From a bacterium (GTDB taxonomy: Bacteria; Patescibacteriota; Minisyncoccia; Phycocordibacterales; Phycocordibacteraceae), in contig JAKBHL010000011.1 in the NCBI GenBank assembly GCA_021836725.1, forward strand, positions 94,494-158,493: 64,000 bases of DNA. The letters run 5' to 3'. How positions within the stretch are numbered: position 1 is the stretch's first letter; the number at the start of each line of letters is the position of its first letter. The translations under genes were made by a program, and so were the position numbers. The notes under the pieces were generated by a model. That model saw nothing but the letters and a program-made list of their open reading frames with translations. It had not been told where the DNA came from and ran no database searches. Shown one piece after another: positions 36,110 to 55,403 of the stretch.

Positions 36110-36170
36110 CGGCATATTCGCTGCGTAGGGTTCGGAGACGCAGCCTTATCCGAATCGGAAGTTTCTATGT

Positions 36171-36190
36171 GCCGAGACGGTGGGATTTGG
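36171..36190 (-). repeat. Partial duplicate of the tRNA-Ser 3' end (GCCGAGACGGTGGGATTTGG vs GCGGAGACGGTGGGATTTGA)
   Basis: 17/20 identity, ~130 nt beyond the tRNA 3' end. Confidence 0.5.
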
Positions 36191-36320
36191 TCACACATAA
36201 TTTCCTGCTGGAAATTTGCGCTACCCCGCCTCGCGCCGGCGCGCTCCGGCCTTCAAATCCCCCGAATCTCTTGCAATGATGTTTCACTCAGCCAGCTCCC
36301 AGCTGGCTTCGCGAATCATT

Positions 36321-36408
36321 GCGGAGACGGTGGGATTTGAACCCACGAGGGGATTTCTCCCCTGCCTCATTAGCAGCGAGGTGCTTTCGACCACTCAGCC
36401 ACGTCTCC
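36321..36408 (-). tRNA. tRNA-Ser (anticodon GCU), long variable arm
   Basis: Reverse complement reads GGAGACGTGGCTGAGTGG...CTGCTAA anticodon loop...variable arm...GGTTCAAATCCCACCGTCTCCGC; no encoded CCA. Confidence 0.85.
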
Positions 36409-53051: not shown

Positions 53052-53080
53052 TTTGGTGCAGTTGCGTTGCCGTCGGGAAT
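53052..53080 (+). promoter_or_regulatory. Strong sigma70-like promoter TTGCGT-17-TATACT upstream of candidate ssrA
   Basis: Hexamers and spacing seen directly; ~18 nt upstream of proposed mature 5' end. Confidence 0.5.
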
Positions 53081-53098
53081 TTCCTATACTTGCCCCTA

Positions 53099-53506
53099 GC
53101 GGGGTAGAGGAGAGGTACCTCGGGAGGCTCATGTGAAAACGTGACCCTATCCGGTAACGGGTAGTGGAAAAACTCTCTAAATTGCTGGAATACCGTTAGA
53201 GCTTCTTGTGCTACAGCGCGATCCGAAAGGATGAGCGCGAACGCCTAAAAAACGAGAAGATTCGGCAATCAGCAGCCAAGCCTAGTTTTACTTCGGGGGT
53301 TCCCCCATTCCGATGGGGAAGGCGAACGGCGGAGTGCGAAAGTGAGGACAAAGTCCGAGCGGGAGCAACTCCGGTAAGTGAGACTGGGAAGGTTCAGAGA
53401 CTATAATGGGAGAGTCCTTATGGGATTGTGGTATAGTCCATTCCTGTTGGAAACAGCAGGTGTAAAAGAACCTCCAGACGCCGGTTCGATTCCGGCCCCC
53501 GCAACA
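53099..53506 (+). ncRNA. ssrA: Candidate tmRNA (ssrA), ~400 nt
   Basis: 3' tRNA-like end GCCGG-TTCGATT-CCGGC-CCCCGC-A with 5' GCGGGGT able to form the acceptor stem; promoter upstream and hairpin terminator downstream; tag ORF not confidently identified. Confidence 0.5.
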
Positions 53507-53513
53507 AGCAAAC

Positions 53514-53539
53514 GAAAGCCGCCTAAAAGGGCGGCTTTC
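53514..53539 (+). terminator. Intrinsic terminator after candidate ssrA
   Basis: GAAAGCCGCC-TAAAA-GGGCGGCTTTC hairpin. Confidence 0.6.
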
Positions 53540-53684
53540 GCATTTGCGCAGTTGCGGAGGGAGCGAAGCGCCTGCGCGCTTCGCGTCCGGAATCGAACAG
53601 CCGGAGCGATGTTTCGCCAGCAGGCGAAACTGCGAGGCAGGGTTCGTGAAAATCCGCGAGCGACGGCGAGCGGATTATTCCTGA

Positions 53685-53708
53685 CTTCGACCGGCCCCCG
53701 CAACAAGG
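53685..53708 (+). repeat. Direct repeat of the ssrA 3' end (TTCGACCGGCCCCCGCAACAAGG)
   Basis: Matches TTCGATTCCGGCCCCCGCAACAAGC at 53485-53508; att-like duplication. Confidence 0.6.
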
Positions 53709-53840
53709 TAGTGCGTGGCCTGCTAACCCAGACCGTTCGGCATCAAAAGTGCCGAAAATCAGTTCAAGACTGATACGGTCGAAATACGCAAAAGGCATCC
53801 TTTCGGCCGTCTTTTGCGTAGGTAATGCTAAAGTATCCAC

Positions 53841-54425
53841 ATGACCGACGAACAATTGTTGTCGCGAGCGAGATCTCTGCAAGAAGACGCGCGACGGATT
53901 TTGCAAGAATTAAATTTGTTCTCGATTATCAGAACGATCTCGGAACCGGAAATCGTGGGGAGCGTGAAAAGCGGGCTCATGATCATGCCTGACATCGATA
54001 TCCATGCGTGGATGGAAGAGCCGAATCTCGGGGCTGTCTCGAATATGCTTTCCACACTTGCGAAGATGTCGACCATTCAGATGGTACATTTCAACAACTA
54101 CCGCGAGCTACGGAGGGATTTCCGAAAGGATCGCATCAATTTTCCGCACGCATACTATGTCGGACTGCGTACCATACAGCCCTCGGGCGAATGGAAGATT
54201 GATATGTGGTTTGGAAAGCGCGGGGAAGTGGGCGAGTATGATGCAACCGAGCTTGAAACGATGACCGATGAACAGCGTCTCGGCATTCTGCGACTCAAGG
54301 AGACTTGGAGAGACGGTAAGGGGTATCGGGATGGTGTTCTCAGCACCGATTTCTATAAAGCGGTCATGCGACACGATGTAAAAGACGAGGGAGGATTTGT
54401 AGAATATCTGAAGACGAAAGAATAA
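53841..54425 (+). CDS. Nucleotidyltransferase-fold protein (GrpB/UPF0157-like; GS-x11-DxD motif), in low-GC islet
   Basis: IVGSVKSGLMIMPDIDIH minimal NTase motif; local GC ~50% vs ~63% genome. Confidence 0.6.
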   Translation: MTDEQLLSRARSLQEDARRILQELNLFSIIRTISEPEIVGSVKSGLMIMPDIDIHAWMEEPNLGAVSNMLSTLAKMSTIQMVHFNNYRELRRDFRKDRINFPHAYYVGLRTIQPSGEWKIDMWFGKRGEVGEYDATELETMTDEQRLGILRLKETWRDGKGYRDGVLSTDFYKAVMRHDVKDEGGFVEYLKTKE

Positions 54426-54428
54426 CGT

Positions 54429-54929
54429 ATGGAAATTAAATCTACACTGACTAATCGTTCAGGCCAGGTATTGGATGTTATCTATCGGGACATAGAATCG
54501 TTTGAAGAACTTGGGAATCGCACTGTGCATGGTGTTCACGCGTTCTGTTTCGCCGGTGACGAGCTGATCATCGTCTATTCGGAAGCAAAAGGGTATTGGA
54601 CGCCGCCGGGCGGCGGGGTGGAGCCGGGGGAGACGGCTGAAGAAGCGATTGTGCGCGAAGTCTTCGAGGAAACGAACATGCGGGTACTCAAACAGCGTGT
54701 CATTGGATACCAGGAAATCTCCGAGCCGCACCGGCTTACGGTGCAAGTGCGTTCGGTTTGCATCGTTGAACCGATTGGGCCGTTTATCGCCGATGCCGAT
54801 TCCAGCGATGGCGAAGGAGTGACCGAAATCAAGCCCATTGATCCAAAAGATATCAAAAAATATTTCGACTGGGGTGAAATTGGTGCTCATATACTTGAAC
54901 GATCCTTATCTATTAAAAGACAGCTCTGA
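54429..54929 (+). CDS. NUDIX hydrolase
   Basis: Nudix box GGGVEPGETAEEAIVREVFEETN. Confidence 0.85.
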   Translation: MEIKSTLTNRSGQVLDVIYRDIESFEELGNRTVHGVHAFCFAGDELIIVYSEAKGYWTPPGGGVEPGETAEEAIVREVFEETNMRVLKQRVIGYQEISEPHRLTVQVRSVCIVEPIGPFIADADSSDGEGVTEIKPIDPKDIKKYFDWGEIGAHILERSLSIKRQL

Positions 54930-54940
54930 ACATAGTCACT

Positions 54941-55288
54941 ATGCAAGAGGTCGTACAGGAGGCCAGGAACGATTTTGAGAATGGTCTGATTGATCAAGGC
55001 CTACTCATTGAGTTGTATAGAGGATATAAAGATGTTGGTGATACGGTACGGTTTGTAACCAAAGCAAGAAATATTTTCCCGAACGGGAATTGTGGACTCG
55101 CGTCTCTGTATCTAAAAAGAAAATTAGGAGGCGAAATTGTTCATGGGAAATATGAGAAACACGACCATACATTCCTGCTCAGCAAAGATACTGTTATAGA
55201 TATCACTGCAGATCAGTTCGGAGGCCCAAAAGTGTATGTCGGTCCTCTTCGGTTACCATGGTCATTTGAAGAAAACAGACGAGCTTGA
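54941..55288 (+). CDS. Hypothetical protein (low GC ~43%)
   Basis: ORF with codon usage distinct from surroundings; no recognised motif. Confidence 0.45.
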   Translation: MQEVVQEARNDFENGLIDQGLLIELYRGYKDVGDTVRFVTKARNIFPNGNCGLASLYLKRKLGGEIVHGKYEKHDHTFLLSKDTVIDITADQFGGPKVYVGPLRLPWSFEENRRA

Positions 55289-55373
55289 TAAGCACAGGAA
55301 TTGAACTTGAAAAAATCACTGGATGCACCGATTCCCGACCCGCTGTCCTCCGCTTGCGACACGGCAAAAAATC

Positions 55374-55403
55374 TTGACAAAAGTCAGTAATAAGTGGTAT
55401 TCT
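55374..55403 (+). promoter_or_regulatory. Sigma70-like promoter TTGACA-18-TATTCT
   Basis: Seen directly upstream of 55476 ORF. Confidence 0.4.

Follow-up and report, generated by a model that had tools for sequence, protein, structure and literature searches.

Within the 64,000-nt stretch analysed here (the window; positions 94,494 to 158,493 of contig JAKBHL010000011.1, assembly GCA_021836725.1) a structured RNA gene of about 400 nt is followed by partial copies of its own 3' end and by an islet of three low-GC genes. We argue that this locus is very probably an initiator-type tRNA-Met(CAU) gene which carries a predicted self-splicing intron and whose 3' end is a recombination hotspot, with an older array lying downstream of it. 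A sequence-only reading had taken the RNA for transfer-messenger RNA (tmRNA, ssrA) and the DNA behind it for the outcome of serial integration; its observations were largely real and were confirmed in part, while of its interpretation the integration idea stood and the tmRNA label did not. Judged by its labelled relatives, the host is one of the Patescibacteria (the CPR, or candidate phyla radiation; Paceibacteria/Parcubacteria), near Kaiserbacteria. Loci from other genomes and contigs are cited by L numbers and single proteins by P numbers.

The intron-split tRNA-Met(CAU) gene

The whole window was scanned with ARAGORN, in its plain mode and then with introns allowed, and with Rfam at gathering thresholds. 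Plain ARAGORN reported one tRNA-Ser, which Rfam also recognised, and no tmRNA; once introns were allowed, its output included a tRNA-Met(CAT), 53098-53505, interrupted by an intron of 336 nt, while a tmRNA was still called on neither strand. Application of the group I rules, that is, a U before the 5' splice site which is paired to a G in P1 and a G as the last intron base, placed the intron at 53133-53468 (Table 1). The structured RNA gene recognised earlier is real, spanning about 53098-53504, with a T-arm of tRNA type, GGTTCGATTCC, and an acceptor stem in which 5' GCGGGG pairs with 3' CCCCGC; CCA is absent from its gene-encoded 3' end.

The interior of the gene matched the Rfam group I intron model RF00028 at 53121-53460 with 60.2 bits (gathering threshold 50), over model positions 1-253 of 253. 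Using a pattern that links the J8/7-P7' segment to an fMet-type T-arm and acceptor we retrieved at least 120 loci from a species-representative genome set, and 26 genes of the form CTCAT/intron...G/AA, from 26 species, were extracted from them and aligned (a slash marks a junction here and below). Double compensatory changes were found in 29 of the 52 consensus pairs of this alignment, with very few disruptions, and P1, P2, P3, P4, P6, P8 and P9 were recovered along with the anticodon stem. Both the splice-site pair U53132.G53141 and the terminal intron G were invariant (26/26 each). Furthermore, intronless tRNA-fMet genes occur in L144 (5206-5277), L150, L149 and L021 (4796-4867), and in L144 and L150 the exons are identical to those of the window and joined as CTCAT/AACC; the intron boundaries are therefore fixed independently. 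An intron at 33/34, of the type found in cyanobacterial tRNA-fMet, was considered and rejected, as the 3' exon starts with AACCUCC and there is no CAUAA.

The alternative that the RNA is a tmRNA, possibly a permuted one, so that the islands described below would integrate at ssrA, has to its credit that the 5' and 3' ends pair in an acceptor-like manner, that a T-arm is present in an RNA of about 400 nt and that ssrA is a classical island target; a permissive Rfam scan also gave weak partial matches to RF00023 (14.8 bits) and to the permuted tmRNA model RF04321 (18.6 bits). Both scores, however, are far below the gathering threshold of 47 and cover the T-arm alone, ARAGORN called no tmRNA on either strand and reported no tag peptide, and the interior is a full-length group I intron whose excision leaves a complete tRNA with D-arm and CAU anticodon arm, just as the intronless orthologues are plain tRNAs. 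Alanine charging of tmRNA needs G3:U70, whereas the acceptor pair 3:70 is C:G here. The features that resemble tmRNA, namely paired ends, T-arm and length, are present because the RNA is an intron-containing tRNA, and we regard a tmRNA at this locus as so improbable that it can be set aside.

The spliced 71-mer folds into a clean cloverleaf and is identical to E. coli tRNA-fMet at 56 of 71 positions, as against 41-42 for elongator tRNA-Met and tRNA-Ile2. Initiator hallmarks are a GCGGGG/CCCCGC acceptor with A73, a 1:72 mismatch, which in its canonical bacterial form is C1xA72, and A11:U24, while elongators have Y11:R24. The spliced tRNA has the CAU anticodon, this very acceptor with A73, an A1xA72 mismatch with no Watson-Crick pair at 1:72, and A11:U24 (A53108:T53120). 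In relatives position 1 is A, C or T and always stands opposite A72, and the T1 of L029 would pair with it. The anticodon stem consists of A29:U41, G30:C40 and G31:C39 (au/GC/GC), an arrangement common to most of the 26 relatives, and thus retains two of the three canonical G:C pairs. These two pairs, and the fact that CAU is common to all three classes, would also suit an elongator tRNA-Met or a tRNA-Ile2 whose CAU is modified to lysidine, and a group I intron at 36/37 is known from the tRNA-Ile2 of Azoarcus. Such introns are recorded for tRNA-Ile2 of other bacteria as well, e.g. Bacteroidota (Table S5, PMC13011429). Against this identity stand the hallmarks in the acceptor, at 1:72 and at 11:24, the much higher identity to tRNA-fMet, the presence of a separate intronless tRNA(CAU) nearby in several relatives, and the fact that alpha-proteobacteria and certain mycoplasmas naturally have initiators with au/GC/GC, a documented variant in which the R:Y rule is kept (PMC5389676). 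We therefore consider an elongator or Ile2 identity very unlikely, and from its sequence features the split gene appears to be an initiator-type tRNA-Met(CAU), which would serve in initiation.

A strong promoter had been claimed upstream of the RNA. Only the -10 element TATACT (53085-53090) is good, and a consensus scan called no promoter, but a TTGNNN-17-TAYRNT layout at equal distance to the tRNA is kept in five close relatives (L066, L121, L041, L132 and L053). In the window and in these five the -10 element ends 7 nt before tRNA nucleotide 1, and therefore the primary transcript may start at or next to the mature 5' end (A1), with little or no 5' leader for RNase P. In the proposed mechanism the gene would be transcribed from this promoter, the intron would excise itself by guanosine-initiated two-step transesterification, with the 5' site set by the P1 U.G pair and the 3' site lying after G53468, and the exons would be ligated into the 71-nt tRNA, to which CCA would be added after splicing because it is not encoded. 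We also noticed a 14-nt near-repeat, TTGGTGCAGTTGCG at 53053-53066, just upstream of the tRNA promoter, and TTTGCGCAGTTGCG at 53543-53556, at the start of the inverted copy described below.

About 19 species with GatA identities of 81-55% have the same succession of genes, ligA, gatC, gatA, the gene of a 194-aa membrane protein and the intron-bearing tRNA, and these species are labelled Patescibacteria, Paceibacterota, Kaiserbacteria or (loosely) Saccharibacteria; the split tRNA is therefore an inherited core gene of a CPR clade. Across this clade the 36/37 intron is a presence/absence polymorphism, the exon sequence being the same with or without it. A lineage-specific extension of P6, 105 nt long (53284-53388), was seen, among the matches listed, only in the window species and L066, and its reading as a mobile mini-insert was rejected, for it is single-copy and found only inside this intron. 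In a conspecific metagenome-assembled genome (MAG), GCA_027422635.1 (L012, 1-200), a short P6 hairpin, GTCTCGGGTAGGCCGAGAAAGG, of a type common in other species, replaces the extension, while the rest is 99-100% identical; this is either an allelic replacement within the intron or a chimeric contig end, the latter being considered because the intron is where this contig begins. Split tRNA(CAU) genes of a second class, with the intron at ARAGORN loop position 32, were noticed in L023, L024, L031, L034, L045, L059, L076, L079, L108, L125 and L129, the hosts being MAGs of the Microgenomates group (Woese-, Chisholm- and Shapirobacteria) and small-genome MAGs labelled Gammaproteobacteria or Pseudomonadales; these introns are probably of the 33/34 type. 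In an Eremiobacterota MAG (L106, 3183-3958) the tRNA-Met(CAU) has a 696-nt intron at 36/37, long enough for a homing endonuclease gene.

Serine-recombinase islands at the tRNA 3' end

For comparison within the species we used the ENA metagenome contigs ERZ272369xx-375xx and the MAGs GCA_027422625.1, GCA_027422635.1 and GCA_027400695.1, which were collected by exact protein matches. Contigs with an identical upstream gene were found to differ in the DNA that lies 3' of the tRNA. Island-bearing sister contigs are 100% identical to the window through 53506 and resume at 53501 (53498 for L011), the overlap being GCAACA, and their junctions read ...CCCCCGCAACA/CGAGAGAACACTAGG... and ...GACGCACAGCG/GCAACAAGCAAACG.... 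The insert in contig k141_705354 is 14,786 bp long, has a GC content of 0.51 and carries genes for an OLD-family nuclease, a large serine recombinase, Fic, type I restriction-modification (R-M) and an HTH_17 protein; the small HTH_17 gene could encode a directionality factor. In the sister-strain islands L001 and L005 precomputed Pfam assignments show a protein with Resolvase, Recombinase and Zn_ribbon_recom domains. The recombinases of two islands are 98% identical while their cargo is unlike, with OLD (7.5e-52) in one and SduA (Shedu; 1e-146) plus PDC-S57 in the other (PADLOC). Similarly, serine recombinases adjoin the same tRNA in L071 (64% identical, same layout) and, as a more distant form, in L066. 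The window is the empty allele of this site, and no recombinase gene was found at its locus among open reading frames (ORFs) or by Pfam.

The variable defence cassette of these islands lies between an identical left end of about 120 nt and the 98%-identical recombinase genes (L001 5129-8150 with OLD; L005 1487-4696 with PDC-S57 and Shedu), which suggests a cassette-exchange hotspot inside the serine-recombinase island.

In the mechanism proposed here GCAACA, the last bases of the gene, would be the att site of islands of about 15 kb which are moved by a large serine recombinase and carry interchangeable defence cargo. The earlier idea of serial integration at a tRNA-like 3' end from which the integrase has gone was borne out and could be extended: islands of sister strains lie exactly at the site, a relative has the empty site of the structured module described below, and the islet looks like that end of an island which holds the cargo. 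In conspecific strains occupied alleles could be told apart from empty ones; the empty site belongs to a tRNA-fMet gene and not to ssrA, and the remark that no integrase remains holds for the locus in the window.

The structured module and the low-GC islet

Immediately downstream of the tRNA gene lies a module, 53509-53707, in which the repeats and the terminator described earlier were all found again: the direct repeat is exact over 17 nt (CCGGCCCCCGCAACAAG, at 53492-53508 and 53691-53707) and reaches about 23 nt with a gap of 2 nt, the inverted T-arm copy at 53587-53603 is 88% complementary, and 53512-53541 form a stem-loop terminator. About 10 species show this arrangement, in the order tRNA end, bidirectional terminator, inverted copy (T-loop to trailer), 45-100 nt with hairpins, direct copy from the T-loop on, and second terminator, and in each of them the inverted and direct copies match the species' own T-stem. 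In L150 a window-type module lies beside an intronless tRNA, whereas in L084 the tRNA is joined straight to the flank of the direct copy of L150; the module is therefore a discrete insertion of about 190 nt with target duplication. We read the direct copy at 53685-53707 as the displaced older 3' end of the tRNA gene, which also forms the islet's left junction. When the window is compared with L150, five pairs are changed in hairpin A, one in hairpin B and three in hairpin C, every change being compensatory and none disruptive, while the loops are conserved. Hairpin A is fully compensated in L150, L025 and L032, and hairpin B covaries in seven species.

A second module follows the tRNA-Ser(GCT) gene of the window (Table 1). 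It has in common with the tRNA-fMet module CCGGAGCG, GCGAGGC[A/G]GGG and the hairpin loop CCAGCAGG, and a search of the window for the motif pair CCGGAGCG...GCGAGGC gave exactly two occurrences, one behind each of the tRNA genes, as against 0.03 expected. The second module and the shared motifs thus point to a family of small structured elements at tRNA 3' ends. As a control, 121 other tRNA genes in the sequences compared were inspected; in 7 cases, this tRNA-Ser among them, the gene's 3' end was repeated in direct orientation at a distance of 83-176 nt downstream.

Similar direct copies were seen after tRNA-Asp (L088, L105 and L149), tRNA-Met (L105), tRNA-Ile (L045) and tRNA-Gly (L112). In L004 (GCA_027422625.1, 4987-7707) the module is recombinant, its 5' half being 99% window-like to 53636 and its 3' half almost identical to that of L053, from another species; after the direct copy follows a different unit, with radical SAM/SPASM and PNP_UDP_1 phosphorylase genes, which ends in its own inverted-spacer-direct structure. 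No Rfam family was assigned to the module, and a known RNA family was set aside since the only match of a permissive scan, BjrC1505 (26.6 bits, gathering threshold 50), was driven by the terminator. Two further candidates were rejected: a minus-strand tRNA-like or mini-tmRNA reading, suggested by the acceptor-like pairing of the module ends, fails because the T-stem is not kept in L035 and L053, there is no G3:U70 and ARAGORN makes no call; and the resemblance of GUCCGGAA...CAGCC to signal recognition particle RNA was judged coincidental, being missing from the tRNA-Ser module and without an Rfam call.

How the module arose may be read in two ways: as an internally deleted remnant of a conventional element targeting the T-loop, whose motifs would be arm-type sites, or as the integration of a single-stranded element. 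No tyrosine integrase was found in the window, in the sampled cargo proteins (Pfam on a sample) or, by eye, in the ORFs downstream of eight module-bearing loci; likewise, near the modules of eight other species no recombinase gene was recognisable by eye among the ORF translations, on which Pfam was not run. In the single-stranded version, units of the form direct copy ... inverted copy - 45-100 nt - direct copy would integrate as single-stranded DNA (ssDNA), with the inverted and direct copies folding into a hairpin att site which resembles the tRNA 3' end in its duplex form, in the way that CTXphi uses dif via host Xer. This would explain cargo units without a recombinase as well as tandem arrays, and its topology fits the derivation given here, including element-borne terminators after the new tRNA end and arrays in the window, L004 (unit 2), L021, L098 and L148/L152; the hairpin covariation fits a single-stranded stage, and no integrase was recognised within these units. 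CTXphi attP(+) itself consists of two inversely oriented sites 90 bp apart and integrates irreversibly into tandem prophages (PMC4246890). The likeness is, on the other hand, purely topological. None of the units showed genes for replication, Rep or phage functions, the site targeted is the T-arm of a tRNA instead of dif, and mutual covariation of the copies is missing after integration. A conventional tyrosine integrase with arm-type sites followed by internal deletion explains the direct repeats equally well, and we hold ssDNA integration to be improbable.

It is also conceivable that the module is no passive scar and is kept for a function of its own as a structured nucleic acid, be it a small RNA, a 3'-trailer processing or attenuation element pairing with the 3' half of the tRNA, or a site folded in ssDNA, for example a decoy or landing pad by which the tRNA is spared damage from island traffic. 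Such a role would account for the purely compensatory changes in hairpins A, B and C and in the terminator, with hairpin B covarying so widely; for the conservation of loops and of the motifs CCGGAGCG, GCGAGGC and CCAGCAGG, also in the tRNA-Ser module; for inverted copies that remain complementary to the tRNA end of their own species; and for the attachment of islands at the direct copy in the window, L004 and L070. Yet the module has neither an Rfam family nor a promoter that we could find, it behaves as an insertion with target duplication, the islands of the sister strains used the real tRNA end and not the decoy copy, and it is missing from many relatives (L084, L121, L041 and L144) and is therefore dispensable. 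A function of this kind is possible, though we lean against it. Equally tentatively we suggest that the modules of about 130-200 nt after tRNA genes might form a family, so far undescribed, of gene-less miniature elements whose insertion site is the tRNA T-loop/3' end, with the layout replacement 3' end, terminator, inverted host-tRNA-end copy, compensating hairpins with CCGGAGCG, GCGAGGC and CAGCAG, and direct copy; their copies might fold as a hairpin att site in a single-stranded intermediate, or act as RNA, and the modules might be landing pads for recombinase-less cargo and for serine-recombinase defence islands.

Beyond the direct copy lies the islet, 53841-55288. The GC contrast which had been noted is a real dip, to 0.40-0.52 over 53800-55400 against about 0.60 in the flanks, although the window as a whole is at 0.579 and not at 0.63. 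On recomputation GC at third codon positions (GC3) was lowered in all three genes (0.58, 0.51 and 0.36 in genes 1, 2 and 3) as compared with 0.70-0.77 in ligA, gatC, gatA, up194, p95 and p325. For gene 1, which had been called a GrpB-like nucleotidyltransferase (NTase), the fold assignment stood: its AlphaFold model (mean predicted local distance difference test, pLDDT, 90.9) retrieved NTases as every top PDB structure match, and with its invariant GS...DxD motif the protein is given a Pol-beta NTase fold. Sequence matches in Pfam, NCBIfam and PDB lent the GrpB-like label no support. For gene 2 the proposed NUDIX hydrolase was confirmed (Pfam PF00293, 2e-12), and gene 3, left as hypothetical, belongs to the YunG family (Pfam PF24585). 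The leader before gene 1 has the layout of the island left ends of about 155 nt, that is hairpin, GTTCAAGAC, CGCAAAAG...CTTTTG hairpin and ATG, with a 20-nt match of 95% (E 4e-5 in a pairwise comparison).

When the islet genes were sought elsewhere, the NTase-NUDIX pair was found in L144 and L141, and NUDIX and YunG homologues in L148. In L144, a Parcubacteria MAG of 52% GC with the same synteny and an intronless identical tRNA, the genes for pyrophosphatase, NTase and NUDIX follow an island-type junction directly 3' of GCAACA, and this cargo is 75% identical to the islet at the nucleotide level; in L141 the pair sits among small genes of nucleotide-housekeeping type. We therefore read the islet as island cargo from a lower-GC relative and not as a defence system, a candidate that was rejected since PADLOC gave only a weak match of the NUDIX gene to candidate PDC-S07 (3.9e-9) and nothing for the other two, and since the surroundings in both L141 and L144 suggest nucleotide housekeeping instead. 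The islet might instead be native and vertically inherited, its low GC being a matter of gene-specific composition, given that it is fixed and 100% identical in all conspecific contigs, that the gene family is confined to Patescibacteria wherever its members are named and that the L141 pair lies among ordinary small housekeeping-type genes. This we find unlikely: GC3 is much lower than in the neighbours, none of the about 19 syntenic relatives (up to 8 kb per locus) has the islet genes at this locus, L144, which is outside that set, has them behind an island-type junction directly after GCAACA, the leader is homologous to the left ends of mobile islands, and a degraded right-end structure is present.

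The NTase gene recurrently lies near NUDIX, inorganic pyrophosphatase, YunG, ASCH and CYTH genes (L141 and L144), and some NTase homologues are fused to DUF3850/ASCH domains (P0071, P0085, P0086 and P0088), which suggests a function directed at nucleotides or RNA ends. On the reverse strand of L148 (1-4406) about 3.4 kb lie between the genes for NUDIX (81% identical) and YunG (77% identical), and this interval opens with an inverted-spacer-direct structure, intact here, and with an island leader; the islet of the window may therefore fuse two units, and YunG may stem from a separate one.

At the right end of the islet a degenerate third copy of the repeat had been proposed. On its own it does not rise above chance, and what favours it is homology to the intact inverted-spacer-direct structures of L148 and L152. 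Positions 55295-55310 are identical (16/16) to the inverted-type element before the intact direct copy 3' of the NUDIX gene in L152, and 55346-55364 can be aligned with the core of that direct copy (GCGACACGG versus GCAACACGG); the structure also coincides with the return to high GC. Within the window the inverted-type match is one of 15, where 12.8 are expected.

Put together, the locus would begin with the tRNA, followed in some strains, but not in others, by a serine-recombinase island; next would come the terminator, inverted copy 1, the hairpins and direct copy 1, then the islet, and lastly inverted copy 2 with direct copy 2 before the core genes are reached. The three-gene islet would be what is left of an earlier island acquired from a lower-GC relative, namely its cargo end without the recombinase, with the degraded structure at about 55295-55364 as its right boundary, and a cargo-less module of about 190 nt (53509-53707) would have brought a replacement tRNA 3' end and terminator, with the older one being displaced to 53685-53707. 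All conspecific contigs agree at 100% in islet, module and repeats, and the repeats are therefore older than the current island polymorphism.

Several points weigh against this model. Self-splicing is predicted from model score and covariation, no convincing P10 pairing was seen when it was looked for by eye, and the first of the three canonical G:C pairs of the anticodon stem is missing. The window contains no recombinase, the predicted attP junction (..GACGCACAGCG/GCAACA/CGAGAGAACAC..) had no match in JGI metagenomes, a search to which the source samples did not belong, and the island recombinase, a protein of 443 aa, is without relatives in IMG/VR. As islet, module and repeats are fixed among the conspecific contigs, their mobility is historical and not observed. 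The serine-recombinase junctions share 6 nt and the module repeats 17-23 nt, and therefore at least two different recombination mechanisms must be assumed. Lastly, the third copy is indistinguishable from chance in the window, for its direct-type match needs a gap and 2.4 comparable matches (up to 3 mismatches) are expected per window.

Table 1. Features of the tRNA locus and its downstream array, and of the tRNA-Ser module, in window coordinates
Feature	Position	Strand	Content	Basis
Putative sigma-70-type promoter of tRNA gene	53062..53090	+	TTGCGT, 17-nt spacer, TATACT	sequence and relatives
5' exon, initiator-type tRNA-Met(CAU)	53098..53132	+	acceptor 5' strand, D-arm (A11:U24), anticodon stem 5' strand, loop through U36	ARAGORN, cloverleaf fold, identical intronless genes in L144 and L150
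Group I intron	53133..53468	+	336 nt, no ORF, inserted at 36/37	RF00028, covariation, intronless genes
Intron helices P1 to P4		+	P1 53129-33/53140-44; P2 53145-53/53158-66; P3 53173-77/53408-12; P4 53183-87/53263-67
Intron helices P6 to P9 and terminal G		+	P6 53269-82/53387-98; P8 53413-18/53422-27; P9 53444-49/53454-59; terminal G 53468
3' exon	53469..53504	+	A37 A38, anticodon stem 3' strand, 4-nt variable loop, T-arm, acceptor 3' strand, discriminator A73
Crossover/overlap segment GCAACA	53501..53506	+	insertion point of 14.8-kb islands in conspecific strains; unoccupied in window
Bidirectional stem-loop terminator, part of inserted module	53512..53541	both	stem changed compensatorily in L150
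Inverted copy I1 of tRNA 3' end	53551..53598	+	T-loop, T-stem 3' strand, acceptor 3' strand, trailer; interrupted by hairpin A 53563-53584
Module interior	53601..53684	+	CCGGAGCG 53601-08; hairpin B with CAGCAG loop 53611-30; GCGAGGCAGGG 53632-42; hairpin C with conserved GAGCGACGGCGA loop 53652-75
Direct copy D1/DR2 of tRNA 3' end	53685..53707	+	from T-loop on; repeats 53485-53508
Islet leader	53708..53840	+	133 nt; hairpin 53736-56, GTTCAAGAC 53762-70, hairpin ~53787-53818, then gene 1 ATG
Islet gene 1, Pol-beta-fold nucleotidyltransferase	53841..54425	+	194 aa; all named members of its family come from Patescibacteria
Islet gene 2, NUDIX hydrolase	54429..54929	+		Pfam PF00293, 2e-12
Islet gene 3, YunG-family protein	54941..55288	+	lowest GC3, 0.36	Pfam PF24585
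Degraded islet right end	55295..55364	+	inverted-type CAGGAATTGAACTTGA 55295-55310; direct-type CGATTCCCGACCCGC 55329-43; relic core TCCTCCGCTTGCGACACGG 55346-64
Second module, downstream of tRNA-Ser(GCT) (36321-36408)	36150..36320	-	terminator, inverted copy GGGGGATTTGAA, CCGGAGCG...GCGAGGCGGGG (36228-36249), CCAGCAGG hairpin loop, direct copy CAAATCCCACCGTCTC ~133 nt downstream

Known systems and significance

Group I introns in the anticodon loop of bacterial tRNAs have been described at 33/34 in cyanobacterial tRNA-fMet and 34/35 in tRNA-Leu, at 36/37 in Azoarcus tRNA-Ile and Agrobacterium tRNA-Arg, and at 35/36 in tRNA-Asn/Asp of Patescibacteria (Nakagawa et al. 2026, PMC13011429). That survey of 95 complete Patescibacteria genomes gives 33/34 as the usual position in tRNA-fMet and lists a mere two introns in Met(CAU) genes, each of them at 33/34; introns of subgroup IC were absent from the phylum. 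The intron described here is similar to these in being an ORF-less anticodon-loop ribozyme with a U before the 5' splice site, a G at the intron end and an RF00028 core, whose presence varies among relatives; it differs in that its host is an initiator-type tRNA with the intron at 36/37 and in the extra 105-nt P6 extension. The 36/37 tRNA-fMet intron was found to be common in Patescibacteria MAGs (at least 26 species).

The downstream array invites comparison with Islander-type islands and with the tycheposons of Prochlorococcus, in which newcomers push older elements outward (Hackl et al., bioRxiv 10.1101/2020.12.28.424599). Common to both are site-specific integration at tRNA 3' ends, partial tRNA copies at the ends, outward displacement, degenerate remnants, defence or niche cargo and, in some cases, large serine recombinases, whereas here the host is a CPR bacterium, the target tRNA gene has an intron and the putatively active elements observed all use a large serine recombinase with a 6-nt shared core. 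Arrays of the window type also have an extra inverted tRNA-end copy and a structured spacer, a combination not described in those passages of the tycheposon paper to which a term search led. With integrative elements of large serine recombinases the islands share the Resolvase-Recombinase-Zn-ribbon protein, precise junctions, minimal site identity and the small HTH_17 gene; unlike those, they carry a defence cassette between left end and recombinase gene that is swapped between 98%-identical recombinases, and they are known from sequence, no circular junction having been found.

Among elements lacking a recombinase, cis-mobilisable elements (CIMEs), known from work on integrative and conjugative elements of Streptococcus, are att-flanked remnants without recombination genes. 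Like them, the module is a short gene-less segment that lies beside its target, such as a tRNA, has direct att-type repeats at its flanks and serves as a place where more elements accrete; unlike them, it measures about 130-200 nt, has an inverted target copy and compensating hairpins, and belongs to a family at several tRNA genes, each copy matching its own tRNA. Classical tyrosine-integrase islands at tRNA genes share the direct tRNA 3'-end repeat from the T-loop, found in about 10 species here, but no tyrosine integrase gene adjoins it in the window or among the sampled proteins. Integrative mobile elements exploiting Xer (IMEX) of the CTXphi type, which use XerCD and a folded ssDNA attP (PMC4246890), likewise have two inverted target-like sites 45-100 nt apart (window, L004, L021, L098 and L148-L152; 90 bp in CTXphi), no integrase of their own and tandem arrays, whereas the module has the T-arm/3' end of a tRNA for its target instead of dif, and the unit proteins sampled included none of Rep or phage type. 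Since the target is a tRNA and such genes were not seen, we do not class the module as an IMEX of this type, the likeness being one of topology only. The intron-split initiator tRNA and the serine-recombinase defence islands are thus known kinds with new members, and the structured module family is the part that may be new.

If the tRNA is split as proposed, all translation initiation in these reduced-genome bacteria would depend on a ribozyme. Finders of tRNA and tmRNA in standard use, such as plain ARAGORN here, miss the split tRNA, and therefore a genome bin would seem to be without an initiator tRNA, or the RNA could be mistaken for ssrA. As the 36/37 fMet intron is widespread in Patescibacteria MAGs and absent from the survey of complete genomes (PMC13011429), the present picture of intron diversity in CPR is incomplete. 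Furthermore, empty and occupied alleles resolved to strains, with exact junctions, make the locus a clean natural case of serine-recombinase islands shuttling defence cassettes (OLD, Shedu and type I R-M) in CPR. To our knowledge, mobile elements of CPR and their attachment sites are poorly known, and the island recombinase with its attB/attP pair is a candidate genetic tool for these bacteria, while the structured module family at tRNA 3' ends offers a feature that can be tested.

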